Source of the DNA: a virus
Lineage: Duplodnaviria > Caudoviricetes
IMG/VR virus record: IMGVR_UViG_3300032217_000636
Location: 1 to 38,625 of that record
DNA length: 38,625 nucleotides
Strand: one strand, 5' to 3'
Numbering within the stretch: position 1 is the stretch's first letter; each line of letters opens with the position of its first letter. The notes under the pieces were generated by a model. The model worked only from the letters and a program-made list of their open reading frames with translations, had not been told where the DNA came from and ran no database searches. Both the position numbers and the translations under genes were made by a program. This document shows, in pieces, positions 1 to 38,625 of the stretch.

Positions 1-123
1 GCTTACGTTACCTGTTGTAGGACTAGCACCAACGCCTAATGACCCTGTAACGCTATTAACTGCACCACCTCCTCCACCGGTAGTCGTAGAGCCTGTTGCT
101 GGTGTGCTATCAGGTTTGCTACC
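1..123. repeat. Terminal direct repeat, left copy (identical to 38503-38625)
   Basis: Exact 123 bp match gcttacgtta...tttgctacc at both ends. It lies inside a CDS, so it is most likely circular-assembly overlap. Confidence 0.95.
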
Positions 124-183
124 ACTTGCTGTGCGGTCAGTAATTTTAATATTACCTGTATTACTCGTGGGTAAAATAGCCAT
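1..183 (-). CDS. 5' part of tailspike gene (continues at 38502 across the circular junction)
   Basis: ATG at 183-181 overlaps the TerL stop (TAATG). 61 open codons (MAILPTSNTGNIKITDR...GNVS) join in frame with the 35929..38481 ORF. Confidence 0.9.
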   Translation of the reverse strand, partial: MAILPTSNTGNIKITDRTASGSKPDSTPATGSTTTGGGGGAVNSVTGSLGVGASPTTGNVS

Positions 184-8455: not shown

Positions 8456-8483
8456 AACCTCAGTCGAATAGACTGGGGTTTTT
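8456..8483 (+). terminator. Intrinsic terminator of the early (plus) unit
   Basis: aacctcagtc-gaata-gactggggtt stem with one G-U pair, followed by a T run. Confidence 0.65.
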
Positions 8484-8697
8484 ACTTGATACGCCACGTA
8501 GCGTAAAGTGTCAATAAGCTAAAGGTTACAACTACTATTATATATATTTGTCCTTTGAATCCTTCTAAAGCAGTAACACGTCCATTTGTTTTAGTTGTCT
8601 GATCTCTAATATCAGCAAGTACTTTATCCTGGTTATCCATCCGCTCAAATATTTTAGCGAAGTTGGAATCTGATGATTGTGGATTAAAGTTACTCAT
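8482..8697 (-). CDS. Small coiled-coil + C-terminal TM protein (holin-like)
   Basis: QTTKTNGRVTALE followed by hydrophobic IYIIVVVTFSLLTLYATW. Confidence 0.7.
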   Translation of the reverse strand: MSNFNPQSSDSNFAKIFERMDNQDKVLADIRDQTTKTNGRVTALEGFKGQIYIIVVVTFSLLTLYATWRIK

Positions 8698-8733
8698 GCA
8701 CTGTGTTTGTTTGTAAATATCGTTATTACAGTG

Positions 8734-8859
8734 TCAATCCTTGTCCTGACAAAAATTCTTATGCCACCATAAAGTAAATATAGTAAATAGTGTTAAACAA
8801 ACACTTGCTAATAAAAACAGAGATACAAAAATTGCTACTACCCATTCAAACCAGTTCAT
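8734..8859 (-). CDS. Small membrane protein (41 aa)
   Basis: MNWFEWVVAIFVSLFLLASVCLTLFTIFTLWWHKNFCQDKD. ATGA overlap with upstream gene. Confidence 0.55.
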   Translation of the reverse strand: MNWFEWVVAIFVSLFLLASVCLTLFTIFTLWWHKNFCQDKD

Positions 8860-9203
8860 GGTTTAAACCCTTGTCTTTTAAGTTTAGACAATAAAACCAT
8901 GTTAGCCATACCTTCTTTGTTAATAGTGTATGTGCCGTCTTTATTGTCAGTTATGCCAGTGTTTTTAATTAAAGCAGGTGTAAATATAGGACTGCCGTCT
9001 GCCAACGTTGCGTCACCATAAATAGCTATTAATGCGTTATATCTGTCTTTAAAATTAGCTGTAACTATAAAACCATCGTAATTCTTACAAATAATACCTG
9101 CGTTTTGATTGTTACCATCAAAGCTAATTACTTTATTTTGTATAGGAGTTTGCACAACTGTACACCCAGATAAAATCAAAATTGCTAATAAACAGTATTT
9201 CAT
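8856..9203 (-). CDS. Lipoprotein (o-spanin-like candidate)
   Basis: Lipobox LSG-C in MKYCLLAILILSGC. Confidence 0.75.
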   Translation of the reverse strand: MKYCLLAILILSGCTVVQTPIQNKVISFDGNNQNAGIICKNYDGFIVTANFKDRYNALIAIYGDATLADGSPIFTPALIKNTGITDNKDGTYTINKEGMANMVLLSKLKRQGFKP

Positions 9204-9391
9204 TGGCTTACATCTTCTCTTAATTTGTTTAAATCGCCATTCACTTCTGCTGCTGCTTGTGCTTTGTCTTTAGCAATTTGTTCTGCTTGTGCGTTAGCAA
9301 CTATAACAGGCGTGTTTTCTAAGGTCTGTTTATCTTTAACAAACCCAAAAAAACTAGCTATGGCATTAAACAATGAAGATATAAAATCCAT
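9200..9391 (-). CDS. Small amphipathic/helical protein (i-spanin-like candidate)
   Basis: Hydrophobic N-terminus followed by an Ala/Gln-rich helix. ATGA-coupled to the lipoprotein gene. Confidence 0.6.
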   Translation of the reverse strand: MDFISSLFNAIASFFGFVKDKQTLENTPVIVANAQAEQIAKDKAQAAAEVNGDLNKLREDVSQ

Positions 9392-9855
9392 TAGCCTTTT
9401 GACTGGCTGTTTTGCCAGGTTGTTACACCGTTTTGTAAACCTGTACTAAATGCTTGCAACAATGCTATGACGTTTGGATCTGTAGCTGATGCAACTTGTG
9501 TACCGTAACTTGATTGATAGTAAGTAACAGCATCAAGTAAGGCTACACTAATAGCACTTTCAACTTCGCTGCTAAGGCCATTACTTTTGCCTATAAGGGC
9601 AACTGTAGCTGAAATGCTATTAGCGTCTAGGTTGCCTGTAGAAAACGCAGCAGGGATAGCTGTAGCTACTACAGATATGACAGGAGCGTAAGACTTGTTC
9701 TTGTTAAGAATTAACGGTACGGCAGTTTGGGCAAGTTGTGTAACAAACGGTGCTACGTTTTTAACTTCATTGCTTACTGCTGGTTTAGTGCCAACAGGAA
9801 AACTAACGCAACCACTAAGCGTTAGGAGTGGTAACAGGAGGAGTAGGCGTTTCAT
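9391..9855 (-). CDS. Lipoprotein
   Basis: Start ATG 9855 gives MKRLLLLLPLLTLSG-C lipobox, followed by an Ala-rich helical body. Confidence 0.8.
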   Translation of the reverse strand: MKRLLLLLPLLTLSGCVSFPVGTKPAVSNEVKNVAPFVTQLAQTAVPLILNKNKSYAPVISVVATAIPAAFSTGNLDANSISATVALIGKSNGLSSEVESAISVALLDAVTYYQSSYGTQVASATDPNVIALLQAFSTGLQNGVTTWQNSQSKG

Positions 9856-10054
9856 AAGATGGATATTTTTGTAAATAGGCTGCAAACACTGTACCAGCAG
9901 CAGCAACAAACTCTGCCATACTAACAGCCCAGTCGAGCCAATTCATACTGGCTACCTGTGCGTGGGTAACGCCTTTAAATTGCTGTGCAAAGGCATCGGC
10001 TAATGCCATAACGACTAAGCAATAACCAACTGAATGTCTGCGTATATGGTTCAT
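9815..10054 (-). CDS. Small membrane protein (holin-like candidate)
   Basis: Two hydrophobic segments; ATGA coupling. Confidence 0.6.
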   Translation of the reverse strand: MNHIRRHSVGYCLVVMALADAFAQQFKGVTHAQVASMNWLDWAVSMAEFVAAAGTVFAAYLQKYPSYETPTPPVTTPNA

Positions 10055-10437
10055 GCTCCAGCAACAAAGCCACTAGCTGACCAATAAACACCTGCACCTG
10101 TAGTAGCACATTGAATGTTTAAAGCTGTGTTAGGGCTGCCACGTAAAGGCGTGTTAAGATTAACGACAACAGGTACTGCTGGTTGTGCACCCGGATTATG
10201 ATCTGCGTACCCTGTCCATATCACTGTAGAACCATCAAGGATGCTTATTGCTGTAGCTGTAGATGAATTATTAACAAATGATAGATCAGTGAGATAGTTA
10301 CGTAAGCTAATAGTCTTGCTTGTAGCACCATCTGCCACTGTTTGTGCAGGATTAATAGTGGTAAGAGTCGTAGTAGCTAACGGAGTAGTGCCTGAAGTTG
10401 ATTGCCAAGAATAGCGGGTAGTAGAGTAAGTGGACAT
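10051..10437 (-). CDS. Small beta-rich structural/accessory protein
   Basis: Thr/Ser-rich, jelly-roll-like pattern (LNTPLRGSPNTALNI...SASGF). Confidence 0.7.
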   Translation of the reverse strand: MSTYSTTRYSWQSTSGTTPLATTTLTTINPAQTVADGATSKTISLRNYLTDLSFVNNSSTATAISILDGSTVIWTGYADHNPGAQPAVPVVVNLNTPLRGSPNTALNIQCATTGAGVYWSASGFVAGA

Positions 10438-10826
10438 TATGGTGAATTATTAGTTGTTATAGAAATGTTATTAGTCGTTACAACAGGCGTTGCAATGTTG
10501 TTTGTTGAGAATGTAACAGGCGTAGGATCTTGTAACGTAAATGCTGAAGGAGCTTTACTTACATCTACTGTTGTTTCCGCAAGAGGAGCTGTAAACGTGT
10601 TAGTCGTAGAGTCGTAATGCCAGCCCATGCCTGCACCTGTAGTCTGTACAGCCCCTAAAGCATCTGGATAGATAGATTGTATAGACTGAGGGTATGTAGC
10701 CCCTACAGATTGATTAGCAACCAGCACAGCTATCACCGTACCATCGCCGTTGGTTATAGCCCAGTTGTACATTGCGTCTTGAGCAAACGCCGTAGCCGTA
10801 AGAAGTATAAAAAGTATGTATTTCAT
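10437..10826 (-). CDS. Tail-fibre-associated protein with signal peptide
   Basis: MKYILFILLTATAFA-Q leader. Body NWAITNGDGTVIAVLV...AGMGWHYD..TNTFTAP resembles small proteins that follow Gly-rich fibre genes. Confidence 0.75.
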   Translation of the reverse strand: MKYILFILLTATAFAQDAMYNWAITNGDGTVIAVLVANQSVGATYPQSIQSIYPDALGAVQTTGAGMGWHYDSTTNTFTAPLAETTVDVSKAPSAFTLQDPTPVTFSTNNIATPVVTTNNISITTNNSP

Positions 10827-13243
10827 TAGAAAGTAATAGTACCTCCACCAGTGAATGTATAGACACGGTATCCGCCAGTCGTTGTTACCGTTGGTGTACC
10901 AGTTGTAGATGAAGCTGCTGGGAATGTAGAAGGATAAGCAAGTATGATTACGCCAGATCCGCCGTTACCACCGCTATATGATCCTGATTGTGATCCGCCA
11001 GCACCTGCTCCTGTATTAGCTGATGCTGAATTTCCGTTACCAGAAGCATTACCATTAGCACCACCACCCATACCACCATAACCACCAGTAGGAGAAAAAG
11101 CGCCATTAGGACCACCACCTCCACCCCCTGCGTATGAAGCACCAAATGGGTTTTGAGAGGCTATGTATGGAGAACCAGCAGTTGTTAATGTAAAGTTATT
11201 ACTGCTATTATCTACAAATGTAGGACTTTGGCAGGTTAATAATTGAGTATTAGTAATAGCCGTTAAAGGTGTAGTTGAAGGCGTAAAACTAGATGTGTAA
11301 AGACAGGTTCCATTTACTATGCGTAAATTAGATATATATCCTTGCCAGAAATTTGAATAAGTACCGCCGTAATAATAAGCACCGCATGACAATAAACCTG
11401 TAGTACTAAAATTTAAACCACCGCTATTTGCATTTGTGTCTGTAGCTTGCAACGCACCATTTATAAACATATACATGGTTGATGTAGAATACTTTCTAGT
11501 AATTGCTACATGATACCAAGTGTTATTGTTTACGCTAGAAGTAGATACTAACGCTACCCTGTTGGAACCACCAGAATAGTAATTAAAGAACGCTATTTTA
11601 TTTGGATAACTACCTTGGTTTACAAATAAAGTCCATTCACCTGTATTTCCATTCCAACCTGTACCTATAGGTTGCTCTAAAGATGTAGCTCCAGTGTATA
11701 TCCAAAATTCAATAGTAAAGTCATTTGTACCAAATGTAAGATTACTACTGCTTGGAACTGAAAAATAACCTGTGCTATTAAAATTATTAGACCAACTATA
11801 CGTTGCTGGGTTGGCTATGTAGGTAGTGAAGCCATCGCCTCCGTTACCACCTCCTGCTGATGATCCTATTGAGCCAGCCATAAAATATCCACCACCACCA
11901 CCGGATGAATAACCGTTACTAGAGCCTATTGAATTACCACCGTAATTTCCTTGGCCTATTGTTCCTGTTCCACCAGATACAGGAGAAGTGGTTACACTAG
12001 CACCACCACCAGAACCACCATTGCCGGGTGTGGTACTTGCTACACCAGCATAAGATCCACCTCCACCACCACCAACTGCCGTAACAGATACGCCTGTACC
12101 AGAAATTGTACTATTAACTCCGTTAGAAGCTGTAACTGTAGGAGATGTTGATCCTGCACCGCCTGTACCAACTGTAATTGTATATGTAGCACCAGAAGTT
12201 ATTTGAGCTATACCTTGTAAGACACCTCCTGCACCACCACCACCTCCACCGTAATATCCTGAACCTCCGCCCCCAGCCACCGCTAAATATTGCACATAAG
12301 GTGTCTTAGCTGGGGTAGCTATAGGTGACCATATAACAACTATGCCTGAACCTCCTGCTCCGCCTGATGCGTTTGTTCCGCCTCCCCCTCCGCCTCCGCC
12401 TGTGTTAGCCGTGCCATTAGAACCTGTAGAAGTTGATCCATTGCCTCCTCCCCCTGTTCCACCAGAGCCTGCTGTGCCACTAGATATGCCACCTCCACCT
12501 CCTCCTGCATAAGTTGTACTAGATCCTGCAACAGGTAAATATATTGCTAAACCTGTACCTCCTGAACCTGATGTTGTACCAGATCCATTGCTTCCTATAC
12601 CCCCAGCTCCGCCACCACCGCCTGTTGGATATGGAGAAGATGTACTTCCGTTACCGCCACCTTGCCATCCTTCACCAGCAACTCCTACAGCACCAGCTAC
12701 AACGCTACCACTAGGTCTTGCCCCACCACCTGAACCACCAGAATTTCCAAGTGTACCATTAGCTGTTTGACTATCGCTTCCGCCACCGCCACCGCCAACA
12801 GCACTAAATCCAAATGCTGAACTATTACTACCATTGCTTCCTGTTGTAGTATAAGAACTAGCACCAGCACCACCAGCACCTACAATAATAGTGTAAGTTC
12901 CAGCGGTTAAAGTTGTTTGTCCTATTACAACGCCCCCTGCACCTCCGCCAGCTCCACCAGCAGAAGCTCCAGAACCAGCTCCGCCCCCACCGCCTCCACC
13001 TCCAGCCACTATAGCATAATAAACAGTGCCTCCTGTTGTAACAGTGAATGTATTAGAGCCTGTCGTTGTAAACGACCATTGGTTATATCCGTTAGCTGGG
13101 GTGGCTTGTGTACCACCAGATGCTACAACACCACCAGCAGCTACGCTCTGCCAATAGGCAAAATTCATTTGCCCGAAGTTGTTACCACGAAGAGTCGTAG
13201 CAATGAGAACGCAGACTAATATAAACTTAGAAGTTCTGAACAT
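10826..13243 (-). CDS. Glycine-rich tail fibre/adhesin with LamG (ConA-like) domain and N-terminal signal-like peptide
   Basis: Two VAGGGGGG...GGSG(I/V)(V/I)I Gly-rich domains. LamG motifs DFTIEFWI, WYHVAITR, MFING, GYISNLRI. Confidence 0.88.
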   Translation of the reverse strand: MFRTSKFILVCVLIATTLRGNNFGQMNFAYWQSVAAGGVVASGGTQATPANGYNQWSFTTTGSNTFTVTTGGTVYYAIVAGGGGGGGGAGSGASAGGAGGGAGGVVIGQTTLTAGTYTIIVGAGGAGASSYTTTGSNGSNSSAFGFSAVGGGGGGSDSQTANGTLGNSGGSGGGARPSGSVVAGAVGVAGEGWQGGGNGSTSSPYPTGGGGGAGGIGSNGSGTTSGSGGTGLAIYLPVAGSSTTYAGGGGGGISSGTAGSGGTGGGGNGSTSTGSNGTANTGGGGGGGGTNASGGAGGSGIVVIWSPIATPAKTPYVQYLAVAGGGGSGYYGGGGGGAGGVLQGIAQITSGATYTITVGTGGAGSTSPTVTASNGVNSTISGTGVSVTAVGGGGGGSYAGVASTTPGNGGSGGGASVTTSPVSGGTGTIGQGNYGGNSIGSSNGYSSGGGGGYFMAGSIGSSAGGGNGGDGFTTYIANPATYSWSNNFNSTGYFSVPSSSNLTFGTNDFTIEFWIYTGATSLEQPIGTGWNGNTGEWTLFVNQGSYPNKIAFFNYYSGGSNRVALVSTSSVNNNTWYHVAITRKYSTSTMYMFINGALQATDTNANSGGLNFSTTGLLSCGAYYYGGTYSNFWQGYISNLRIVNGTCLYTSSFTPSTTPLTAITNTQLLTCQSPTFVDNSSNNFTLTTAGSPYIASQNPFGASYAGGGGGGPNGAFSPTGGYGGMGGGANGNASGNGNSASANTGAGAGGSQSGSYSGGNGGSGVIILAYPSTFPAASSTTGTPTVTTTGGYRVYTFTGGGTITF

Positions 13244-15923
13244 AAGATCCGTAATATTTAGCAGCAGTGGCGTTGTAGTAAAATGTATATACGTCTGTCT
13301 TACTTAATGTAGCAGTTTGTGTAGGAGCTGTACCACCAGCCCATAGTATGGTTGTTATGCCAGACCAGCTTACAGTGGTAGGAGTGCCTGATGCTGGCTG
13401 ATGAATAGCAATCGTTATCACTTGTCCATCTTGGGCGTTAGTAAAGGCCATAGAAGCAGCCGTAGCGGACGTAAGCGTAAGATCAAAGCTATTGCTTAAA
13501 GACCAATTAACTGAAGGAGAAGCTCCTGTAGTCACTGTACTTGTTGCTGGTGTTAGAGCACGTTGAGCAGCAGCAGCCGTTGTTTGGCTTGTACCACCAT
13601 TTGCTATCGAAAGCGTACCAGCACTCACGACACCACTGCTCGCTGATAAAGCTCCTGTTAAACTCGTAGCTAGCGTAGTAGTTCCTGTAGCTGTAAGATT
13701 GGCTGCCGTTAATGTTCCAGTGAATGTAGGACTAGCAGACAACACAGTTGAACCTGTGCCTGTTGAAGTGGTAACGCCTGTTCCTCCGTTTACTACAGGA
13801 AGCGTACCGCTTACTTGGGACGTAAGACTTATTGTACCAGACAAAGCTGATGTAGGTATTGTTGTAACAGCACTTACTACGCCTGATGTACCGTAAAGAT
13901 AACCTGTAAGACTTGTAGCTAAAGTAGTTGTACCAGTAGCTGTAAATGCTGGAACGGTTACAGAACCACTAAAGACGTTAGCATCAGTGCCTGCTTGGTA
14001 TATGCCGTATTGTGTAGAAGCTGTTGGATCAGCAGCTAAATACAATTGGTAAGCAGAACTAAGACTACCTGTAACAGTAGGAGTGTCTAAATAGTTTCCG
14101 TAATAGCTAACGCCTGTGTAAGAACCTACTGTAACAAAAGGCTTAGTGTATATAGCCTTTAATGAATCACTGTTTACCGAAGCGGTAAATGTAGGACGAT
14201 TGTAAAAGCCAGAAGCTAAACCTCCAGCGCCATCATTTAAAGCTGAATAATTAACAATAGAATCAGCAGCAACAGCAGCAGATCCTAAACCTAATCCAGC
14301 AAACTGAGGACTAGAAGTGGTCGTAATTCCTTGCACAGATGTAAGTGTAACAGCACCAGTTTGAGCTCCGCTAGTTGTACCGTTGGCTAATATATTAACT
14401 GAACCAGTAATAGACGATACACCGCTAGAAGCTCCTGTAGTCCATGATGGATTGGCTGACGCACCACCTGTTGTAAGATATTGTCCTGATGTTCCGGGAG
14501 ACAAAGCAGCCCAACCAGAAGCACCACGATAAAGAACAGATCCTTGTGTGTTGCTAAATGCATTGTCTAAAAAGCTACTTACAGTGTTAAACGCTGGTGC
14601 TGCTGTAGAGCTAGTGTTGTTTCCAAATACTGTGTTAGCTGCTGATGTAGTTGCTCCTGTTCCACCATTGGCGACGGGTAGAGTGCCGCTAACTTGAGAT
14701 GTCAAGCTAACTCCAGAAAGCGTACCACCTAAACTAAGATTGCCTGTAGTAGTTACACTACCTGTGAGAGTTATTCCATTTACGCTGCCTGTACCACCCA
14801 CTTGTGTTACCGTACCTGTACCGCCTGCTGCTGCCCATGCAAGACTGCTACCAGCTCCTACAGTAAGTACTTGTCCTGTTGTGCCCGCAGGAAGTGCAAC
14901 CCACTGAGCAGAACCACGGTAAAGCAAAGCACCTTGTGTATTACCTAAACTATCTAAATAAGAAGTTAATGTGTTATAAGCAGGAGCACCAGAACTAGAA
15001 CCGTTATTACCAAAGATTGAGTAACCAGCAGCGTTACTTAAACTAAAACTTAGGGCTGGTGTGCTATTGGATGTAGCTACAGCAGTAGTAAACAAAGGAC
15101 TTAAATTGCCTGCTGTAAAATTAGTTACAGTTCCAGAGCCTCCACCACCAGAACCATTAGAAGCTAGAGTAATACGACCATAACTATCTACAGTAAGATT
15201 AGTATTCGTATATGATCCGGGCGTAACAGCCGTAGCCACTAAACTAATCGTGGCATTATTGTTAGTTGTAACAGCAGCTATCTGTCCTGACGTACCAGAA
15301 ACACTTTGTATGCCATACGTAGCTGTTATGCTGTTAGTGGTAAACGCAACATTACCGTTACTATCAAACGCAAGGTATTTACCAGCACGAGCGTTTTTAG
15401 TCATAATTAATTGCGGAGGCACACTGTTAGTTGTTTCGTATGCTTCTACACGTAAACTAGCATTACCTGTGTTAAACGCCATTTGACTAAGCGTTGCTTG
15501 CTTGTCTAACGCTTGTTCAATCATAGCAGCCGTTAAATATCCACCATTAGCAAATACCGTAAGTTGGTTAGCTGGTACATTACGTAACACGTAGATATTA
15601 TCACCTAGTAAAATACTACCGCCACCTGTGTTTGTAAGTGTAAACGTACCTAATTGCATTTGATTAGCACTGTTATAGCCACCGCCAGATACAGTGTAAT
15701 CTGATCCTAAAACCAATACTGTAGCAGGATAGCGTGGTGCAGTAGTTTGACCTGCATCAACAATAATAAGGTCTGACGACTGCTGAAAAGCTAATCCAGT
15801 TGTAAAAGTAGCAGTTAATGATGCTGGCTGTTGTGGGCCGTAAACATCTGCGGTTGGTGTAATAGTGGCACTTAAACGTGCAACTAATAAAACCAAGGGT
15901 AATAGATAGCGTAAAACTTTCAT
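13227..15923 (-). CDS. Tail fibre with T7-gp17-like N-terminal anchor, preceded by a signal-like peptide
   Basis: SDLIIV..LVLGSDYTVSG..IYVLRNVP..IEQALDK anchor motif; repeats GTLPV.NGGTG and QG..LYRG...W.AL..GT.GQ.L; C-terminal beta-sandwich. Confidence 0.88.
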   Translation of the reverse strand: MKVLRYLLPLVLLVARLSATITPTADVYGPQQPASLTATFTTGLAFQQSSDLIIVDAGQTTAPRYPATVLVLGSDYTVSGGGYNSANQMQLGTFTLTNTGGGSILLGDNIYVLRNVPANQLTVFANGGYLTAAMIEQALDKQATLSQMAFNTGNASLRVEAYETTNSVPPQLIMTKNARAGKYLAFDSNGNVAFTTNSITATYGIQSVSGTSGQIAAVTTNNNATISLVATAVTPGSYTNTNLTVDSYGRITLASNGSGGGGSGTVTNFTAGNLSPLFTTAVATSNSTPALSFSLSNAAGYSIFGNNGSSSGAPAYNTLTSYLDSLGNTQGALLYRGSAQWVALPAGTTGQVLTVGAGSSLAWAAAGGTGTVTQVGGTGSVNGITLTGSVTTTGNLSLGGTLSGVSLTSQVSGTLPVANGGTGATTSAANTVFGNNTSSTAAPAFNTVSSFLDNAFSNTQGSVLYRGASGWAALSPGTSGQYLTTGGASANPSWTTGASSGVSSITGSVNILANGTTSGAQTGAVTLTSVQGITTTSSPQFAGLGLGSAAVAADSIVNYSALNDGAGGLASGFYNRPTFTASVNSDSLKAIYTKPFVTVGSYTGVSYYGNYLDTPTVTGSLSSAYQLYLAADPTASTQYGIYQAGTDANVFSGSVTVPAFTATGTTTLATSLTGYLYGTSGVVSAVTTIPTSALSGTISLTSQVSGTLPVVNGGTGVTTSTGTGSTVLSASPTFTGTLTAANLTATGTTTLATSLTGALSASSGVVSAGTLSIANGGTSQTTAAAAQRALTPATSTVTTGASPSVNWSLSNSFDLTLTSATAASMAFTNAQDGQVITIAIHQPASGTPTTVSWSGITTILWAGGTAPTQTATLSKTDVYTFYYNATAAKYYGSYVQNF

Positions 15924-15931
15924 GGTGTTAG

Positions 15932-17500
15932 TTAAGATTGTTCTTCTTCGGATTCAATGGAAAATGGTGAAACGCCGTATTCTTCAATTTTGGCTATTTG
16001 TTGTTTAGCCATTTCTACAGGACCTACGTTAAACTTTATACCGTAACCTTCTATGGTTTCACCTGCTTCTTTAACCATCTCAATAGCATCTTCTAACGTA
16101 TCTCCCCATCCTACAACTGCACCAATCTCTATCATTTCGTCATCTTGTGGTACAATGTAATAATTATTATCTACTTTTACTGCGTTAAATAACTTGATGT
16201 TTCTGCGATATTTAGGATCAAAACTGATCTGCTGCCAGTTCTTTTCAGCCCATGCAGATTTAAGAATAACTTCTACGCCAAATTTACCTGCTGGTATAGG
16301 CTCAACTACAACGCCATTAGAGCCATGCCAAATAATTTCTGATAAGTTAGTATAAAGTTCGCAATAAAGTTCGTTAGGTGGGCAAGGAGCACGACAAGTA
16401 GCGTCTATCATGTAAGGCTCTTTATCCTTACCTATACGTATTTCGTTGCTAAGAAAGCCTCTGTAACCTGCACGCCCCATGTACTTTGCCATTGTATTAG
16501 TCCAGCGTGTAATAGGTTCTGGTATAGATTTGTATGGCATCATTTCGCCTACGTAGCCTAAGTCTTTTACTTCTATACCACATAACGTGTTCTTAGGGTA
16601 TTTACCGTCTATGCAATAGCAGTCTAACCCAACTTCTACGCAGTCTGGCAAATCATCTTCTACTATAAATTCTAACACTTCTTGAAACGCACCTAGCTTG
16701 GCTGCTATTTCATCTAACTTTGGTGCTACTATATCGTAACGTGGTGCAAAGAAAGATTCTGTTACGCCACGCCATTTATTTATCTTAACGTGTTGGTTCT
16801 CGTGTGCTTGCAAATATTCACGCAAGGCTTTCATGCCAGTCATCATTTTCCAAGGTTGTACTGGCAAACCTTCTTTTTCCATTAGTTCTTTAGTAACATC
16901 ACGATATATTTCTAACTCCTCACCGTAACGTGCTCCCCACACACGTTTACCCATCTTTTCTAACTGCACTTGTAATGCTGCATGACCTAGATCTGGAAAC
17001 ACGTACAAATCTATTTCATCGTACTTGTCCCACATATTATCAACTAACTCTATATCTTCTAAACCATAGCCTACCATGCCATGATTCATAGTAGGAAACG
17101 AACCGCTTACAGGAACGTACAAATAGACTTTTTTAAAGTCTCGTGCAAGTCGTGTAGCCATATCCACGAAAAGCGGATTGCAAACAAACAAAACAGTCTT
17201 TGTAGATACATCATCGTCTTTTGTATTTTCATCTGTAGATTCATTACTGTGTGCAGGACCTTTGTCACCAGGATAATCATCCATCATAGTCATGTGACTA
17301 TGCAATTCTTCACTGCCTTCATCATCCATAAGTTGTCCCGACTCACGAGCAACTTGCATACCTTCTACACGATCTACAAACGATCCATCGTTTAATAAAA
17401 AACCACGTTCACCATCTACACCTGTATCATCGTGTACACGTCCTAAATGCAATTTACCTTCTGCATCTTTAACTGCTGCTGATTTAATCCGTCGCTTCAT
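15932..17500 (-). CDS. PurD-like ATP-grasp ligase with extra N-terminal domain
   Basis: VWGA..EELE..R...KELM...GLP, HVKI, FIVED, VEVG, GYRGFL, IDATCRAPCP (compare PurD EFNCRFGDP). GGAGG RBS precedes ATG 17500. Confidence 0.8.
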   Translation of the reverse strand: MKRRIKSAAVKDAEGKLHLGRVHDDTGVDGERGFLLNDGSFVDRVEGMQVARESGQLMDDEGSEELHSHMTMMDDYPGDKGPAHSNESTDENTKDDDVSTKTVLFVCNPLFVDMATRLARDFKKVYLYVPVSGSFPTMNHGMVGYGLEDIELVDNMWDKYDEIDLYVFPDLGHAALQVQLEKMGKRVWGARYGEELEIYRDVTKELMEKEGLPVQPWKMMTGMKALREYLQAHENQHVKINKWRGVTESFFAPRYDIVAPKLDEIAAKLGAFQEVLEFIVEDDLPDCVEVGLDCYCIDGKYPKNTLCGIEVKDLGYVGEMMPYKSIPEPITRWTNTMAKYMGRAGYRGFLSNEIRIGKDKEPYMIDATCRAPCPPNELYCELYTNLSEIIWHGSNGVVVEPIPAGKFGVEVILKSAWAEKNWQQISFDPKYRRNIKLFNAVKVDNNYYIVPQDDEMIEIGAVVGWGDTLEDAIEMVKEAGETIEGYGIKFNVGPVEMAKQQIAKIEEYGVSPFSIESEEEQS

Positions 17501-24243: not shown

Positions 24244-24644
24244 GGGTTACTCTTTCCGTAAGTTACGTGAGGTTCACCTTGTAAATCTTGATAACTTGTT
24301 TTAGCCATAATTCTAGCTTCACCAGAATTAGGTTTAACAAATGACAATACACAGGGACTAGCGTTGTCCCATGCTATTTGCTCTAAATGCGAATATAATA
24401 ATTTAACTGCGTTTACTAAATTTTTAGATAGTTTATCTACAGGATTAGTTGTAGTAAATTCAATTACTGAAATGCCACCTATGCAACAGTACAGAAAAGA
24501 TGCAGCTATTGGATGTTCGTTAATTTCTACTATTGCACCTGTAGCTGGTAAAAACACTTCTGCTGGCATAACCGCAGCACCATGTATTTCCCACCATGAT
24601 CGTATCATGTTATAATCTTCTGATTTATAAGGTCTAATAATCAT
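24234..24644 (-). CDS. GNAT-fold-like protein (T7 gp13-like position)
   Basis: MIIRPYKSEDY start and strand/helix pattern. Lies between tube B and the internal proteins. Confidence 0.65.
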   Translation of the reverse strand: MIIRPYKSEDYNMIRSWWEIHGAAVMPAEVFLPATGAIVEINEHPIAASFLYCCIGGISVIEFTTTNPVDKLSKNLVNAVKLLYSHLEQIAWDNASPCVLSFVKPNSGEARIMAKTSYQDLQGEPHVTYGKSNPCL

Positions 24645-27600
24645 GGTGTAGCTATTACATCGTACTTAATAATAACAGCTAATACGGTCAATGGCAATGC
24701 ATCACTACCTGTAATTACGATAATAGGGTCAGTATCAGGTGTTAAGTTTAATTGCGGTGTAACTCGTATATCTGTAGGTGTACTTATAAAATTAGACTGC
24801 GGACTAGCAAACGGATTAGCTAAATTGCCATACGGTATAGGTACAGGTAAAGCTGCATAACCACCGTAAGGCTTCCAGTTAATAGGATCAGCAGGTGGGG
24901 GTGTAGAGCTGCTTACTATTGCAGTAATTACCTGATAATAGATGCCATTATAGCTTACTTGGCTGCCTTGCGTATAAGATGTGCCACTAATCCATTGTGC
25001 AGGTCCTGATGCTTTGTTAGCTATGTAACCGCCTAAACTGTTCCATACCCTTAAGAATACGTCAGAGATTTGCTTTACAAGCCCTTGTGTACTGCCAGCC
25101 CTACCATCGCTATCATAACGCATAGCTTGAGCCGTATAAGTAATAGTAAGGCCAACGTTAATGATGCTAGGACCAGAAGCAGGTCCGTAAGGTATAGTTA
25201 AAGTGCCGTAGTCTGTAACTGTTTTGCCTACTTGTATAGGTCCAAATGCGTAACCATCAGCTAAACCTACAACATAGCGACCAGCTAAGTTGTTAAGACC
25301 TGTTACTACATTAGAACCGTTGTTAATAATGGTAGTACCTGAATCAACGTAAAAAGCATTACTGACGTTAGCAACTGAACTACTTGGTGCAGAACTCCAT
25401 GTTTGTTCCCAATTATATGGGTTGATGCGTTCAATGTAATTTTGACCATAAGTGTATGGAGCTACACCTAGCCAGTTTGTATGATCTCGATCTGGCGGTG
25501 TGCTAGATTGTACAGAATAATTAGGTGCAGGTGCTATACACACGTAATTATTACCATTATAACTTACAGTATTATTAAATGCATAAACGTCACGATGCGA
25601 ATAATAACGTGTACTTAAGTTCCAAAGTGGTGGTGTGGTAAAACGATTAGCAACTACCCACACTTCGTCATCTGATATGCCTTGACCAAACACTGTTGCT
25701 ACTGATTGAAAACCGTTGTCTGGCGTATTAAAATCAGGATTTGCGTTATTTGTACCTGTGTTATGTCTATGCCAACTAAACACGTTTTGTTCCATTTCAT
25801 AGGTCATACCGCAAAGCTGGCCTTGCTGTGTAACAGCCCATAGCTCGCTTTGACCATGCCACATAGACTGATAGTCTAATTGTGCTATACCTGTGTTAAA
25901 CAAATGGCTAGAGAAAGTAGTTAAACTTTGGCTCATGTATTTCTCAGTATAAACTGAGAATAACATTTGTCTAATTTGATTAGCTTGTCTTTGTAAGAAT
26001 AAAACGCCGTCACCTACAACTAACGGATTAACGCCAAATATAGAACCCCATGTAGAATGTTCTGTAGCTGATACTGAGGTTGGCGTTATAGCACCACCTG
26101 TAGAACTACCTGCTTGTCCAGAACTGCCGTTAATTACCCATTCTGCACCAGAGAATCCTGCAAATAAATTATTTTGACCTATTAGCCATACAATAGGACC
26201 ACGTCCTGGTGCATTAAGATCAAACGCAAATGAATCGGTAGCTTTAGTTTGATCACCTAAAGCAAAATTTTCGATGTCATTGGTGACTGTGCCCCATATA
26301 CGTTGCGGTTGATAAGCGGACGCTCCATATACAATGCGTTGCTGATAAGAGGTAACCGCTTGGGGGTAGCCACGGTAATCAGACCAGGCTCCTTCTGACC
26401 AGTATTCAGTTGTAGGTCCTTGCGGAGACCAATGGGTTGGATCTGCTGGCGGTACTGAATAGCTTGTGAGTGCTGATGTGCAAACGTAGTTTTGAGAGCC
26501 ATAATTGACTACAGCGTTAGTAGTATAAGACGTACCAGATACCCACAACGCAGCTAATGGTGCGTTATTGTAAAGCTGTTGTATTACATTAGCCGTAGCC
26601 GTGTACGGACCTGTAACGCTTGTTATTTGTACTAAGCCGTATAGAAAACCATCTTGTGCTTCTAATACAATACGTGGTGCTGTTGCACCTGCTGTTGTAG
26701 GAGCAGTAGAAGTTATTACGTTAATTCTAAATAAAGCAGGTTCTGCTGCTGTACCTGTAATATCTACGTTACGGTCAGAATAACCTGTAACGTTGCGTAC
26801 TGCATCCCAAGTTTGACCACCGTCTAATGAACGTTCTATATTAAAATTAGCGTTCCATACGCCGTAAGTGTGTGCTTCCCAATTACCGTATATCTCTATT
26901 TGTTGCGATAATCCATTTGCACCATAAGGGAAAGCTGATGATGGACTTGCAGCGTCTATTTCGACAGATGATGAACTGCGTAGTGTAGCTATTTGCCAAT
27001 AAGAATTTACATGGCCTTGATTGCTACCGCTAGGTGCTTGAAATATAGTAACAAGTTGCCATAAACCAGCAGCTAAATCTGCGGGAAAACTAGGCGATGA
27101 ATTGTTTTGTATTACACATTGGTAAATATTGCCACTGTTTGATACGGTGTTACCTACTTCGTAAAAGTTATACGATACCCAAGCAGGTGCATTAGCAGTT
27201 AAAGTAATGCTGCCACTTGCTGAACTAGCAGTTAATGTTGTTTGATTAGCGTTTTGATCAAGTAAAGCAGGTGTTAAAAACTGCACTTGTTTCATAACCC
27301 AGTACGTATCAGAATAACGTGTAAGACTATAAACAGGGTAATTAGGATGTGTTATGTACAATACATCGTTTACTTGGCAAAAAGCTAATTTCCAAATATC
27401 GGTTGAGTAAGGGGAATTTATAACACCTAAACTATTAGTAGTATAAGACGCTTGGTACGGTGTAGGTACTTCTAAAATTGTCTGTTGTATAAAACGTGCT
27501 GGCTGACTGTAAGGATCAGCAGGTGCTGTACCTGCTATTGTGTTGTAATAAATTAAACTGGTTGTTGGTGACGTTATATACGCACCCGCAGGGTAAGCAT

Positions 27601-27964
27601 TGCCCGATACCCAAGTTGGTGCAGTAGCTACATTAACTTGCTGACCGTTGCTGTAAAAACGTATGTACTCGTGACCAAATTCTAAAACAAATGTAGTCGT
27701 AGGACTGTAAATAAACTTTTGTAATCTTGTAGCGTAATTAGTAACTGTTGTTACGCCACCTACCGTATTAGCGTATGAACCTGCTTTAGCTGTAGCTATA
27801 AATTGTGTACCTGGCCTTCTTGTGACTGGTCCCTGTTTATAAGGGATCATGTTCACCATCTGTCTAGATGCTGATTTGTATTTCTCTTGGTCTATTCTAG
27901 CGTCTAGCTTTGGGCTAAACTCTCCACCAGTGAAACTAATTTGTGTATCTATTGATTTAGCCAT
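24641..27964 (-). CDS. Tail tubular protein B / nozzle with five CBM-like inserts
   Basis: SFTGGEFSPKL.AR.D, RRPGT.F, LEFG..YIRFY, Q.NDV.YITHP, WSEGAWS..RGYP, DSG, LPLTV. Start MAKS at 27964. Confidence 0.92.
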   Translation of the reverse strand: MAKSIDTQISFTGGEFSPKLDARIDQEKYKSASRQMVNMIPYKQGPVTRRPGTQFIATAKAGSYANTVGGVTTVTNYATRLQKFIYSPTTTFVLEFGHEYIRFYSNGQQVNVATAPTWVSGNAYPAGAYITSPTTSLIYYNTIAGTAPADPYSQPARFIQQTILEVPTPYQASYTTNSLGVINSPYSTDIWKLAFCQVNDVLYITHPNYPVYSLTRYSDTYWVMKQVQFLTPALLDQNANQTTLTASSASGSITLTANAPAWVSYNFYEVGNTVSNSGNIYQCVIQNNSSPSFPADLAAGLWQLVTIFQAPSGSNQGHVNSYWQIATLRSSSSVEIDAASPSSAFPYGANGLSQQIEIYGNWEAHTYGVWNANFNIERSLDGGQTWDAVRNVTGYSDRNVDITGTAAEPALFRINVITSTAPTTAGATAPRIVLEAQDGFLYGLVQITSVTGPYTATANVIQQLYNNAPLAALWVSGTSYTTNAVVNYGSQNYVCTSALTSYSVPPADPTHWSPQGPTTEYWSEGAWSDYRGYPQAVTSYQQRIVYGASAYQPQRIWGTVTNDIENFALGDQTKATDSFAFDLNAPGRGPIVWLIGQNNLFAGFSGAEWVINGSSGQAGSSTGGAITPTSVSATEHSTWGSIFGVNPLVVGDGVLFLQRQANQIRQMLFSVYTEKYMSQSLTTFSSHLFNTGIAQLDYQSMWHGQSELWAVTQQGQLCGMTYEMEQNVFSWHRHNTGTNNANPDFNTPDNGFQSVATVFGQGISDDEVWVVANRFTTPPLWNLSTRYYSHRDVYAFNNTVSYNGNNYVCIAPAPNYSVQSSTPPDRDHTNWLGVAPYTYGQNYIERINPYNWEQTWSSAPSSSVANVSNAFYVDSGTTIINNGSNVVTGLNNLAGRYVVGLADGYAFGPIQVGKTVTDYGTLTIPYGPASGPSIINVGLTITYTAQAMRYDSDGRAGSTQGLVKQISDVFLRVWNSLGGYIANKASGPAQWISGTSYTQGSQVSYNGIYYQVITAIVSSSTPPPADPINWKPYGGYAALPVPIPYGNLANPFASPQSNFISTPTDIRVTPQLNLTPDTDPIIVITGSDALPLTVLAVIIKYDVIATP

Positions 27965-28882: not shown

Positions 28883-29590
28883 TTAGTTGTTATCGATGAT
28901 CTCGAAGCGGAACACACTGACTGCTCCTGCAACTGGACTACCAATAGTAGCAACAAGTGCTTGCAACCAGCAATCTTCAGACACGAGGTATGGAGCATAT
29001 AATGCTGTACCACCTGTTGTAGATACGTTACCGCTTGCACTAGCACAGTTGATAGCTGTCGAATAACGTACTGAATTTGCAATCCAGTATGTAGTATCCG
29101 AGTGTGGAGCTGTCGTCTGTGAGCTTGTTGTAGCTTTGATACAGGTGTATGTTTGGTTCGCAGGACTTGAAGTTGCGTCCAATACAATCTGTCCAACTGC
29201 GTAAACAGTTCCAGAAACCCAAGTTGGAGCTTGGATAACAGTTAATGAATTTGGTGCTGTTTGTGGATTTGGGATTGGCAAGTTAGTTGCCAAACCTTGA
29301 TCGTTATCACCAATCGCTAATGTTAATGTTGTCGCAGGAGCTGTTGTGCCACTGGAAACACGTCCGTTAGGATCGATCATTGCACCAGAAGGTATGATAG
29401 CAATGTTGATAAGGTCGTATTGTGCTTCGTTACCGGTCCATGTGTATGTTGCGGTAATTTTGCCCGGACCTTCAAGGATAGGGTTGTTCTGTACACCCGG
29501 TTGGGTAGTCAACATTGTCAGGCCAGTTTGGCCCGGAAAGTTGACACCTTGGATTTGATTAGACGCTACGTCTGTATAATAGATAGCCAT
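28883..29590 (-). CDS. Capsid cement/decoration-like protein with CBM-like insert
   Basis: Directly after the MCP with an AGGAG RBS; jelly-roll pattern IAIIPSGAMI...TLAIGD. Confidence 0.7.
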   Translation of the reverse strand: MAIYYTDVASNQIQGVNFPGQTGLTMLTTQPGVQNNPILEGPGKITATYTWTGNEAQYDLINIAIIPSGAMIDPNGRVSSGTTAPATTLTLAIGDNDQGLATNLPIPNPQTAPNSLTVIQAPTWVSGTVYAVGQIVLDATSSPANQTYTCIKATTSSQTTAPHSDTTYWIANSVRYSTAINCASASGNVSTTGGTALYAPYLVSEDCWLQALVATIGSPVAGAVSVFRFEIIDNN

Positions 29591-35928: not shown

Positions 35929-38625
35929 TTATGGATTTATATACAAAGCTGCGTTAGAAGTACCGTTATCTATGTTTAAACTAGATCCACTACTTTGTTG
36001 TACAGCTATAACAAAATAATCTCCGGGTACTACATCAATGATTCCGCTATCAACTATTCCAGCAGACTGAGCAACAGCATTGCCATAAACAGAAGCTATA
36101 GTAGATCCGTTCTTTTGTATAAGGAGGATACGGTAGCCAGTGTTGTTAGAATACCATACAATATTTGCATACACTCTAACTTTGTAAATGCCGGCAGGTA
36201 CAGTTAGTCGTGTACTACTACCACTAGACCAAATAGATAAATCGTTAGGTTGTGCTGCTCCCCAAGTTACAGCATAAGGAGTTCCTGCGTCGTTAGGTAT
36301 GGACTGAGCTGATGTTATTGTAACTCGAGCCCCAGTCTTGCCGTAATAGGTATTATTAATGGCATAAGAGTTATTATAGAAGTCTAAATATTGGGTAGTT
36401 ACTGCACTGCTAGAAAGATAAATAGGAGAAGTTACTACACCAAATTTTGAACTGGTAACTGATACACCTGTAACGCTTGTACCGTCTATTTGTACGCCGT
36501 AAGCCCAAGTAACACCACCGTCTAAAGTATTTCTAACATCAAGTCCTGTAATGTGTACTTCATTAGAGCTACCACCTATGTAAACAAAAGCATTAGTTGT
36601 TGGTTGAGTTTGACCTGTTGTAGCACCCCCTGTGACGCAATCAGATATATCTATACATCTAGCATTAGACATCCACACTCCATAATGGATGTTATTACCT
36701 ATGCAGTCGCTGATTTGTACTTGCTGTACGTTGCTGCCAACTCCCTTAAGTACAACGCCGTAGTCACCAATATCCCATAAGCTATCATGGATTTGTAACT
36801 TAGCTGTACCGTAAGTTGTTGTACCATCTACAAAGATCGCACAGGTGTTAACAGATCTTGTTCCACCCTGACCTATATCTTGGAATATACCTGAGATGGA
36901 AGTCTCGTTCATTCCAGAGACAGTAGCCCCAAACCATGCACAAGGATATTGACTAGAGCTATTGTATTGCCCTGCACCTGAGAAATTAACTTCGTCTATA
37001 CGTAAGCTATTACAGCTATCAGCTACTAAACATGGAAAACTATAATTACTGCCTGTGTTAGTCAAAGGACCGCCTTGTACGGCTTGTATGCCATTTATTA
37101 CACCACCGCATACATAAACGTAATAAGGAATACCGCCTGTAGAAACTCCACTAATTACAGATACCGATACTTTAGTATTTAATAATGAAAGATAATTAAC
37201 ACGTTGAAAATTAAAACCATGAGATAGAATACTCATTTCAATATTATTAACAAAACAGTTAGATATGTTTTGTATTTGCAATGTTGTAGATCCGTATCTG
37301 TCTCCATTGAATCCGTTAAAACTAAATCCTGATACAGTTAATGTCGTGATGGATTGACTTGTAGATGTGTTACCTATCTTCCAGCATATGCCAACAGATG
37401 ATAATATTGGTGCTATGTATGTAGCACCGGGTCCATCTCCTAAAAAATTAACTTGATAGTTTGTAGCCCCAGATACGTTTTTAGTAAAATCACAAGCAGT
37501 TTTACAATAATACAATCCTGCTGGAAAATATAACGTACCTACAAATTGTGGTCCTGTCGCTGTTGCAGTTAAAGCTTTCCATGCATCTAATATTCCTATT
37601 GAAGCATTAGTTCCACCTTGATCTGGTATAGCACCAAACCAACGTACATCATAAGTATTATTAGTTACGTATGTGCTGCTATAGGTAACATTAGCCATTG
37701 CTGTTTGGCTTAACCAACGACCAGCCCCAGAATTACCTGTTGGGTTTATAATGGTTCCGCAAGCATTAGTGCCACCATTATCGCTAGCAGTTGATATGCT
37801 ATTCCAAATAAATGTTTGCCCGCCTCCATCTCCTTGCGTCAAAGCCCCAGCAACGATTGCTACAGTGCCATTTGTTAAACCAGAATAGGAAGCTGCCCTA
37901 AGACCAGCAATGGTTGTGTAAGCCAAAGTAGGGGGTGCTGTAATGGTTGCAGACGTTAATGCCGTCACACGACCTTTAGCATCTATAGTTATTACAGGAG
38001 TTGTTGTGCCGCTACCTATAGGACCAGAGGCCGTAACAATAGAAGCTAACGTACCAGCTGCCGTAACATTAGCAGATCCATCAAATGCTGATGATGTATA
38101 AGCTAAATCACCTGTAATGCTAATAGTTCTGCCTGTAGCTAGTTTTGTAGCCGTACCAGCATTGCCTGTAATGTTTGTTTGATCGCCTGTGTTGGTCCCA
38201 GAACTAGATCCAGAAATATATGATGTTCCTGTAACCGACAGCGTAGGTGTGCTACTACCTGACAACGTAATGCCATTAACAGATGTTGGTGTTATAGCAG
38301 CTAGTCCTAAAGTAACAGCGCCGGTAGTAAGCGTTGATGGAGTGATGCCATTAGTGCCAGTGATGCTTGATACACCACTGCTGCTTGTAATTGCTACATT
38401 GCTAGCTGATGTTATTTGACCCTGTGCATTAACTGCAATTTGTGGCACATGGGTAGCGTCACCATACGTAGCAGCAGACACGCCTGTTGTGTTAAGATAT
38501 ACGCTTACGTTACCTGTTGTAGGACTAGCACCAACGCCTAATGACCCTGTAACGCTATTAACTGCACCACCTCCTCCACCGGTAGTCGTAGAGCCTGTTG
38601 CTGGTGTGCTATCAGGTTTGCTACC
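35929..38625 (-). CDS. Tailspike / depolymerase with pectate-lyase-like beta-helix (918 aa when circularised; starts at 183)
   Basis: GDGGGQTF.W, YDVRWFGAIPD, TLYFPAGLY, beta-helix repeats, C1q-like C-terminus. Frame is open to the contig end. Confidence 0.88.
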   Translation of the reverse strand, partial: GSKPDSTPATGSTTTGGGGGAVNSVTGSLGVGASPTTGNVSVYLNTTGVSAATYGDATHVPQIAVNAQGQITSASNVAITSSSGVSSITGTNGITPSTLTTGAVTLGLAAITPTSVNGITLSGSSTPTLSVTGTSYISGSSSGTNTGDQTNITGNAGTATKLATGRTISITGDLAYTSSAFDGSANVTAAGTLASIVTASGPIGSGTTTPVITIDAKGRVTALTSATITAPPTLAYTTIAGLRAASYSGLTNGTVAIVAGALTQGDGGGQTFIWNSISTASDNGGTNACGTIINPTGNSGAGRWLSQTAMANVTYSSTYVTNNTYDVRWFGAIPDQGGTNASIGILDAWKALTATATGPQFVGTLYFPAGLYYCKTACDFTKNVSGATNYQVNFLGDGPGATYIAPILSSVGICWKIGNTSTSQSITTLTVSGFSFNGFNGDRYGSTTLQIQNISNCFVNNIEMSILSHGFNFQRVNYLSLLNTKVSVSVISGVSTGGIPYYVYVCGGVINGIQAVQGGPLTNTGSNYSFPCLVADSCNSLRIDEVNFSGAGQYNSSSQYPCAWFGATVSGMNETSISGIFQDIGQGGTRSVNTCAIFVDGTTTYGTAKLQIHDSLWDIGDYGVVLKGVGSNVQQVQISDCIGNNIHYGVWMSNARCIDISDCVTGGATTGQTQPTTNAFVYIGGSSNEVHITGLDVRNTLDGGVTWAYGVQIDGTSVTGVSVTSSKFGVVTSPIYLSSSAVTTQYLDFYNNSYAINNTYYGKTGARVTITSAQSIPNDAGTPYAVTWGAAQPNDLSIWSSGSSTRLTVPAGIYKVRVYANIVWYSNNTGYRILLIQKNGSTIASVYGNAVAQSAGIVDSGIIDVVPGDYFVIAVQQSSGSSLNIDNGTSNAALYINP
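38503..38625. repeat. Terminal direct repeat, right copy
   Basis: Identical to 1-123. Confidence 0.95.

Follow-up and report, generated by a model that had tools for sequence, protein, structure and literature searches.

Tailed-phage particles are taken to be built wholly in the cytoplasm. The closest described relatives of the fibre analysed here are the T7 gp17-type fibres, which share its anchor fold (Carin-1 Dpo31/Dpo36, PDB 28lx and 8ck1; LME-1, 9efk; BcepC6B gp18; and Pelagibacter Skadi) and its position in the late operon. The fibres of BcepC6B, Skadi-4 and Carin-1, whose starts were checked, begin at the anchor. In the phage described here, however, a cleavable-type leader precedes the anchor, and two further genes of the module also carry leaders. 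The T-even proteins gp37 and gp38 are a fibre and a glycine-rich tip adhesin. Our module resembles this pair in that a fibre gene is followed by a gene for a glycine-rich protein, with an aromatic motif that co-occurs with the fibre-tip domain, but it has no gp38 match in the PDB and both partners have leaders.

The pIII protein of filamentous phages is a virion adhesin that carries a Sec signal peptide and matures outside the cytoplasm; inoviruses assemble during extrusion, and pIII stays membrane anchored. In contrast, the phage described here is tailed, with a portal and a terminase, and its mature module proteins lack a transmembrane segment. Sec-exported or SAR endolysins and spanins are late proteins of tailed phages that use host export, but they are lysis enzymes or membrane proteins, unlike the virion appendages considered here. 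A report on the MAT proteins of Bdellovibrio describes phage-fibre-like trimers behind a signal peptide (PMC10769870), so such folds can mature after export. The same report describes these proteins as host encoded and surface displayed, with a conserved, beta-rich N-terminal domain of ~130 amino acids (PMC10769870); by this description the domain is not a phage tail anchor, which sets them apart. In the literature covered, chiefly titles and abstract openings, the fibres of tailed phages were nowhere described as carrying signal peptides.

The fibre module and its genome

The window, the whole stretch of DNA analysed (IMG/VR record IMGVR_UViG_3300032217_000636; 38,625 nucleotides), is the circular genome of a podophage. 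Coordinates are window positions, and the leader-bearing module lies on the minus strand.

13227..15923, minus: gene 1, tail fibre, 898 aa, no Cys, S+T 30%
15867..15923, minus: gene 1 leader, 19 aa, predicted signal peptidase I cut after Ala19
15339..15866, minus: tail-anchor domain of T7 gp17-N/Carin-1 Dpo31-D1 type and start of coiled coil; sole copy in the genome
13230..13553, minus: gene 1 C-terminal tip domain, resembling PF26209 Phage_phiTE_241_C
10826..13243, minus: gene 2, glycine-rich protein, 805 aa, putative fibre-tip adhesin
13184..13243, minus: gene 2 leader, 20 aa, followed by a conserved aromatic motif
10437..10826, minus: gene 3, 129 aa, no Cys, phrog_14370-like domain (function unknown)
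10782..10826, minus: gene 3 leader, 15 aa, start coupled via TAATG
15932..17500, minus: ATP-grasp/PurD-like gene directly upstream of the anchor gene, no leader
10051..10437, minus: 128-aa gene, no leader, coupled to gene 3
8482..10054, minus: putative lysis cassette with a holin-like gene, lipoproteins and small membrane/coiled-coil genes; no endolysin recognised
9815-10054, minus: holin-like gene, role assigned from sequence only
9391-9855, minus: lipoprotein gene in the cassette
8856-9203, minus: lipoprotein gene in the cassette
1..183, minus: 5' part of the tailspike gene, no leader, continuing across the circular junction
35929..38502, minus: remainder of the tailspike gene; 918 aa in all, 13 Cys, no leader

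The initial annotation had described the three leader-bearing genes as coupled. This holds for genes 2 and 3, since gene 2, counted from its ATG, shares 17 nt with the end of gene 1 and a TAATG overlap contains the start of gene 3, whereas gene 1 starts 8 nt past the upstream stop and is adjacent rather than coupled. As in podophages, the anchor fibre is encoded in the late operon with the portal, tube A and tube B. No tRNA was found in the window, and a cluster look-up of 10 proteins returned no names.

Leader sequences

Leaders were called with our own n/h/c-region heuristic on the ATG-initiated open reading frames of the window (n=61). Of the nine that were flagged, three were shadow frames and the others were genes 1 to 3, two lipoproteins and a holin-like gene. 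The three leader N-termini were found at 15923, 13243 and 10826 on the minus strand, exactly where they had been reported. The accompanying observation that leaders are missing from the capsid, portal, tube A, tube B and tailspike also stood: all were unflagged by the heuristic, the tailspike being read from its true start at 183, as were the nozzle and the internal virion proteins.

A survey of homologues for leader presence, as the initial annotation had proposed, covered 178 anchor-bearing proteins: 100 carried a leader, 69 began with a Met that coincides with the predicted cut or adjoins it, and 9 were ambiguous. The suggested resemblance to Sec-type leaders extended to these 100 proteins, in which a positive n-region (K or R within the first six residues in 98) is followed by a hydrophobic h-region (core present in 97). 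The residue at -1 was Ala in 83, Gly in 16 and Ser in 1, a pattern independent of our rule for choosing the mature start, which used residues +1 to +4 only. By our tally the -3 residues were small or aliphatic (A50, V13, L12, C9, G7, S7, T1, F1). Small residues at -3 and -1 constitute the signal peptidase I rule, and such residues were found here. The c-region of leader 1 is less typical, with Leu at -3 and Arg at -4; relatives carry Ala-x-Ala. In eight aligned genomes, leader 1 retains an invariant ATG and an open frame and changes codon-wise from hydrophobic to hydrophobic residues, with pN < pS. Gene 3 homologues begin with the leader in 90 of 92 cases, and the other two start further inside the domain. 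Taken together, the alignments indicate that the leaders are real and not due to chance, are translated and conserved, and are under purifying selection. They also support the view that the leaders behave like cleavable Sec signals.

Two other readings of these N-termini were considered. Shine-Dalgarno motifs are rare in the window genome (4 of 29 starts), and with starts thus unmarked the leaders could be annotation artefacts, the true starts lying downstream, an objection that the initial annotation had itself anticipated. In the eight genomes, however, the ATG is invariant, the frame stays open and change is codon-wise; with the TAATG coupling of gene 3 and the lack of any Met between residues 2 and 88 of gene 1, an artefact is scarcely credible. 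In the window genome a Met does follow closely after the cut in genes 2 and 3; that of gene 3 was unconserved in an alignment of homologues read by eye and, being absent in many of them, was rejected as the true start. Alternatively, the N-terminal hydrophobic segments could be uncleaved signal-anchor or SAR-like tethers, placing fibre assembly at the inner membrane. Such tethers lack a peptidase site and are of membrane-spanning length, but the -1/-3 pattern was present in 100 of 100 leaders and the cores of the three leaders are short (best 19-residue hydrophobicity means of 1.78, 1.31 and 1.23), so that this appears improbable. Moreover, under the positive-inside rule a positive n-region leaves the downstream part outside, and a tethered fibre would be outside regardless.

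The tail anchor and its leaderless relatives

The initial annotation had placed the first cut at the start of a T7-gp17-like anchor. Structure matches confirmed the anchor (PDB search, 28lx/8ck1, E 2.6e-7; Foldseek, 8ck1, 9efk and T7 gp17), and the predicted cut coincides exactly with its start. A beta-sandwich followed by a coiled coil is the arrangement of T7 gp17-type fibres, and gene 1 shows it; in those fibres, however, the anchor lies at the translated N-terminus, whereas here the 19-aa leader precedes it. Gene 1 appears to work like a T7 gp17-type fibre, yet it is not a canonical member. Tail attachment of an anchor-bearing protein goes through that domain, according to one report (PMC13317679). 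The window genome and each of five relatives (5 of 5) encode a single anchor, which is leader bearing in four of the five relatives. The tailspike has no anchor, and the sole anchor of the window genome is the leader-bearing one. Anchor columns conserved at >=80% numbered 31 in the leader class and 33 in the leaderless class, with 24 in common. Since it contains the only anchor in the genome, and one as conserved as leaderless anchors, the gene 1 product most likely still joins the virion, and the same grading applies to the exported parts in general.

The offsets of the anchor-domain start were bimodal, with 68 at -1/0, 96 at 15-25 and none at 1-8, and the predicted cut gives an N-terminus equal to that of leaderless relatives. 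In the leaderless cultured BcepC6B and Pelagibacter phages the Met lies at or beside the cut, and residue 2 of Carin-1 aligns to profile position 2. The leaderless form likewise has a Met at or beside the cut in a partner protein (L010 compared with L005/L009) and in the tip pair of a Leptospira phage. On the anchor tree the leader state changes at least 20 times, compared with 52 for shuffled labels, an approximate count given the weak resolution of the tree, in which 65 of 154 inner branches are open, and one that module swapping can inflate. A single leader clade was rejected (AU p 0.00017), and on the portal tree the leaderless G648 is sister to the leader-bearing G645 (97/95). These trees indicate that the leader has been switched on and off repeatedly across the family. 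Wholly leaderless modules occur in the same family (L010/G648 and L111/L112), and export is therefore dispensable. Modules of mixed type, in which the anchor is leaderless but distal fibres are leader bearing, were read by eye in loci that include some near-duplicates (L108, L115, L120, L122-L126, L128, L132, L011/L047 and L085); genes 2 and 3 both have close homologues in L125. If compartments mix freely, such modules can be explained without a dedicated machine.

Fibre tip, partner proteins and cysteines

The tip domain of gene 1 resembles PF26209 in Atlas features (0.97), in structure (TM 0.86) and by alignment. Gene 2 contains three PF21722 matches (E 1.5e-23) and a LamG domain (PF13385) at residues 490-645; a clostridial-toxin-domain match was below the Pfam cut-off and overlapped the stronger LamG match, and so does not mark a toxin. 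Its glycine-rich repeats are of the gp38 type, but in a PDB search for gp38 homology the only match was an S-layer-domain protein (E 0.006). The aromatic motif behind the gene 2 leader sits at the Met in the leaderless Leptospira phage counterpart. Among 13 distinct fibre ends it accompanied the fibre-tip domain in 12, and the remaining one is cut by a contig end; this co-occurrence suggests that the gene 2 N-terminus may pair with the fibre tip. Gene 3 matches phrog_14370, a family of unknown function. Its leader does precede this domain, as had been claimed; the label "fibre-associated" reflects gene order only. Among cultured phages there was no match for the N-terminal third of gene 2 or for gene 3.

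The mature products of genes 1, 2 and 3 contain 0, 3 and 0 Cys. Leader forms had a median of 2 Cys, compared with 9 in leaderless forms, and 43% of the leader forms that have Cys had an even number, which is no even-number bias. A disulphide rationale was rejected for this phage family on these grounds; with cysteine-free fibres, disulphide formation is not the general reason for export. We speculate that export spares the cytoplasm sticky adhesins rich in Ser, Thr and Gly, or makes these adhesins accessible to folding or glycosylation in the periplasm.

Putative lysis cassette

The lipobox genes at 9855 and 9203 are real lipoproteins, and no endolysin or peptidoglycan hydrolase was found among the window proteins. 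The initial annotation was therefore right on both counts, but the link that it drew from them to the leaders was unsupported. A complete relative with a leaderless module, G648, also has no recognisable endolysin, so the missing endolysin is a family-wide trait and not tied to leaders, and endolysin loss as part of a leader system was rejected. Putative holin and spanin roles in the cassette were assigned from sequence features. With no lysis enzyme identified in the window, the way in which compartments would mix is a candidate step only.

A model for fibre assembly and its alternatives

We propose that the tail fibre, the glycine-rich tip protein and the small partner are made with secretion-type leaders, that Sec would export them and that signal peptidase would cut the leaders. 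The fibre and tip protein would then assemble outside the cytoplasm, and completed fibres would attach to particles already tailed and filled with DNA once the inner membrane opens at lysis and the compartments mix. We judge Sec export and cleavage of the module proteins very likely, and export followed by joining to cytoplasm-built particles at lysis probable on balance. We lean to a similar degree towards the wider proposal that the family builds its particle from two compartments, arms the virion at envelope breach and switches single fibre genes between routes via a 15-25 residue leader, here without disulphides or a recognisable endolysin. Finished T4 long fibres join fibreless particles as a separate step, as one report describes (PMC3004832).

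Export might instead be leaky, with a cytoplasmic fraction that assembles normally and an exported fraction that masks receptors, blocks superinfection or helps adhesion. Fibres trimerise fast and could perhaps escape Sec, leaderless relatives show that cytoplasmic assembly works, and the Met just behind the cut in genes 2 and 3 would suit such dual use; gene 1, however, has none at residues 2-88, that of gene 3 is often missing and the leaders appear strong and under purifying selection, which makes this reading doubtful. Passage of particles through the inner membrane, followed by arming in the periplasm and exit without classical lysis, is unlikely. That course would fit the lack of a peptidoglycan hydrolase in the window and among 73 proteins of three complete relatives, and the cassettes of 15 related loci, five of which contain Lipase_3. 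Yet the leaderless G648 lacks a recognisable endolysin too, the window has holin-like and lipoprotein genes, and Pfam holins occur in two relatives. In addition, there was no recognisable export machine, and the nozzle is leaderless. The exported proteins might also never join the virion, acting as surface adhesins or receptor decoys while the virion relies on its tailspike only. Bacteria do export phage-fibre-like trimers behind signal peptides, to judge from the report on the Bdellovibrio MAT proteins (PMC10769870), and the window has a leaderless tailspike. But this tailspike lacks an anchor, the only anchor is leader bearing and fully conserved, and in the complete relative G646 the genes seen after terL are all leader-bearing fibre genes, without a tailspike (ORFs >=100 aa, by eye); we consider such decoys very unlikely, and display on the infected cell alone, one of the options initially offered, is unlikely.

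If the tail anchor is indeed exported, a morphogenesis step would cross the inner membrane and infectivity would be tied to lysis. Virion adhesins would be open to periplasmic folding and host glycosylation, and the annotation of signal-peptide genes in phage late operons would change. The family offers a natural experiment, as near relatives differ in which fibre genes carry the leader.

Host and distribution

The fibre-tip profile matched 0 of 401 sampled genomes of the phylum of Spartobacteria, and the anchor profile matched 10 of them, all leaderless as read. Fetched prophage stretches, mostly shortened remnants, contained no leader-bearing anchor. The ATP-grasp gene matched 1 of 251 genomes of the order sampled in the host search. 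In a Spartobacteria MAG two contigs carried relatives, and in an Armatimonadetes MAG one contig did; these contigs are possibly misbinned. The host is plausibly a member of the Verrucomicrobiota.

Signal-peptide-like leaders open the three fibre-module genes

The initial annotation described signal-peptide-like leaders on the tail-fibre gene (gene 1), the adjoining glycine-rich gene (gene 2) and the short gene that follows (gene 3), and the N-termini read from the window DNA were as described. An n/h/c-region heuristic flagged 9 of 61 ATG-initiated open reading frames, namely, genes 1 to 3, two lipoproteins, a holin-like gene and three shadow frames. The claim that a T7 gp17-like anchor begins at the predicted cut of gene 1 also held: residues 20 to ~195 match the N-termini of tail fibres from BcepC6B and from Pelagibacter, Vibrio and Enterobacter phages (35 records), the anchor profile matches Carin-1 Dpo31/Dpo36 from residue 2 on (E 2.6e-7), and the predicted anchor structure (pLDDT 76) retrieves the N-termini of Carin-1 (8ck1), LME-1 (9efk) and T7 gp17 in a structure search. 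At the C-terminus, 108 residues form a phage fibre-tip domain resembling PF26209. Attachment to the tail is stated for the Carin-1-type anchor domain (PMC13317679), and LME-1 fibre trimers contact the adaptor and nozzle (PMC12407071). Gene 1 would work like a T7-type fibre, yet its leader breaks the leaderless feature of that family. Six-frame searching revealed a single anchor in the circularised genome; each of five related records likewise has one. One viral contig (loci L011 and L012) has two leaderless anchor genes, one at each end.

We surveyed the window protein and 178 homologues, of which the anchor profile matched 178 of 179. Among the matched proteins the distance from Met to anchor was bimodal, with none at 1 to 8 residues, giving 100 leader-bearing proteins (89 distinct anchors), 69 leaderless proteins (68 distinct) and 9 ambiguous ones, which were excluded from later counts. 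The residue at -1 in the leader forms was Ala in 83, Gly in 16 and Ser in 1; 98 had K/R near the start and 97 a hydrophobic core. The 69 leaderless anchors had Met at or adjoining the cut position, and no upstream in-frame leader was seen in the DNA of L010, L011, L012, L046, L047 or L058. Across eight aligned genomes the ATG of leader 1 was kept and variation was codon-wise (15, 11 and 7 variable columns at codon positions 3, 1 and 2), with pN below pS in leader and anchor alike.

For gene 3, the leader was present in 90 of 92 homologues; an internal Met, considered as a possible true start, was dispensable across homologues. For gene 2, a leader-bearing gene followed all 13 distinct fibre-tip ends among the related loci examined; in 12 of these genes a conserved aromatic motif comes directly after the cut (9 identified by pattern, 3 by visual reading), and the remaining one is truncated by a contig end. 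Leptospira phage LE1 also has a comparable fibre end (E 2e-3); the next gene there has no leader and bears a similar motif, judged by eye, at its Met. Export and cleavage of the leader-bearing proteins, taken together, are very likely. The gene 2 homologue after position 4498 of L100 has a longer leader that resembles a degenerate twin-arginine (Tat) signal more than a Sec one.

Leader state switches within the family

On the anchor tree (169 rows), which is weakly resolved, leader state changed at least 20 times, compared with a shuffled mean of 52 and minimum of 44; a single leader clade was rejected on this same weakly resolved tree (AU p 0.00017). Anchor conservation was alike in both classes. 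By eye, from gene order, we assigned three architectures. In type A, which includes the window, the anchor-fibre is predicted to be exported. Type B combines a short anchor that lacks a leader with distal fibres that carry one and, mostly, a leaderless tailspike. L125 is an example, and close homologues of both gene 2 and gene 3 are present in it. Type C (L010, in the complete phage record G648) has no leaders anywhere in the module, and its partner protein has Met at the cut, where counterparts in L005 and L009 carry a leader. The portal tree pairs G648 with G645, which has the leader, within a clade that is itself leader-bearing; this placement suggests loss or a module swap. Repeated leader switching within one family is one contribution of this locus.

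Proposed export of fibres, joining to particles and possible purpose

In type A, an exported anchor would have to meet a cytoplasmic tail; in type B, exported parts would have to meet a cytoplasmic anchor. Once the inner membrane fails at lysis, the compartments would mix freely and fibres could then join, so that both meetings would follow from simple mixing. We consider such joining at lysis the somewhat favoured route. T7 fibres and P22 tailspikes are added late and in a step that can be separated. For T4 fibres, too, attachment comes late and is separable (PMC3004832).

Disulphide formation was excluded as the purpose for genes 1 and 3, which have no Cys; the locus supplies a cysteine-free case of a leader-bearing fibre. 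Median Cys was 2 in leader forms versus 9 in leaderless ones, and the cytoplasmic tailspike has 13. Because Ser/Thr content is high (25 to 30%), glycosylation or sequestration of sticky adhesins is a possibility.

Virion adhesins that are exported occur in filamentous phages. Bdellovibrio exports phage-fibre-like trimers (PMC10769870). Our literature search, within the text accessible, found no published account of such exported fibres in tailed phages; there, PMC5723332 goes no further than counting the signal peptides of two Bacteroides phages, and PMC12309495 mentions one for Lom alone.

Absence of a recognisable endolysin is uncoupled from the leaders

As the initial annotation had noted, no recognisable peptidoglycan hydrolase was present among the window proteins (33 searched in Pfam and PHROGs, 31 in NCBIfam). 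None was found among the 67 of 110 downstream open reading frames scanned at 15 related loci, or among 73 proteins chosen from three complete relatives; divergent enzymes could escape any of these searches. In choosing the 73, terminase, portal and tube proteins were set aside, along with most capsids, probable shadow frames and most of the proteins searched earlier. Judged from these searches, the missing recognisable endolysin is a family-wide trait, since leaderless G648, one of the three, shows the gap too. The proposal that this absence belongs to the leader system consequently fails, and the family separates the two. A Lipase_3 gene occupies the lysis-cassette slot in 5 of the 15 related loci, all relatives without a recognisable endolysin.

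Lipase_3 genes in the lysis-cassette slot
L001:16169-16846
L005:14368-15093
L093:17198-17905
L103:16390-17097
L105:11365-12018

In L008 and L114 this slot holds a protein with no Pfam match that resembles a permuted papain-type hydrolase in its motif.

Genome context and host

The window, a whole virus record, has a terminal overlap of 123 nt; CheckV estimates 73% completeness despite this repeat. The podophage late operon encodes terminase, portal (PF12236), capsid (PF19821), tube A (phrog_394), tube B (phrog_376) and internal virion proteins, and an ATP-grasp-like gene is followed by genes 1 to 3 and the inferred lysis cassette.

Further features of the window
1-183 + 35929-38502, minus strand, tailspike gene crossing the circular junction, start at 183, no leader
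15932-17500, minus strand, ATP-grasp/PurD-like gene between internal virion proteins and fibre gene
24641-27964, minus strand, tube B with inserted CBM5/12-like modules
28883-29590, minus strand, gene after capsid with a motif similar to these modules (phrog_6278)
31164-31472, minus strand, GroES-like (Cpn10) gene of the head module (weak match, clearer in G646)

The tailspike had been reported to have no leader, and its true start, at 183, bears this out. It follows terL at a distance from the tail genes and lacks an anchor domain. A similar N-terminus stands at the corresponding position in G648; in type B relatives a tailspike lies behind a short anchor.

The lipoboxes of the lipoproteins suggest a two-membrane host. 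Relatives lie on contigs binned, possibly wrongly, in a Spartobacteria and an Armatimonadetes MAG. Portal matches occurred in 37 of 401 sampled genomes of the former's phylum, Verrucomicrobiota (best 41%), and in 1 of 151 of the latter's; identity to cultured phages was 31% at best. The portal tree nests the window with portals from Verrucomicrobiota genomes (100/100), which, with two phyla and five cultured phages sampled, makes a Verrucomicrobiota host plausible.

The ATP-grasp/PurD-like gene, whose product could modify virion proteins, had matches in 53 locus records, some of them duplicates, and lay directly upstream of the anchor gene wherever order was read, in leader and leaderless types alike. 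A Shine-Dalgarno-like motif preceded just 4 of 29 window starts examined.
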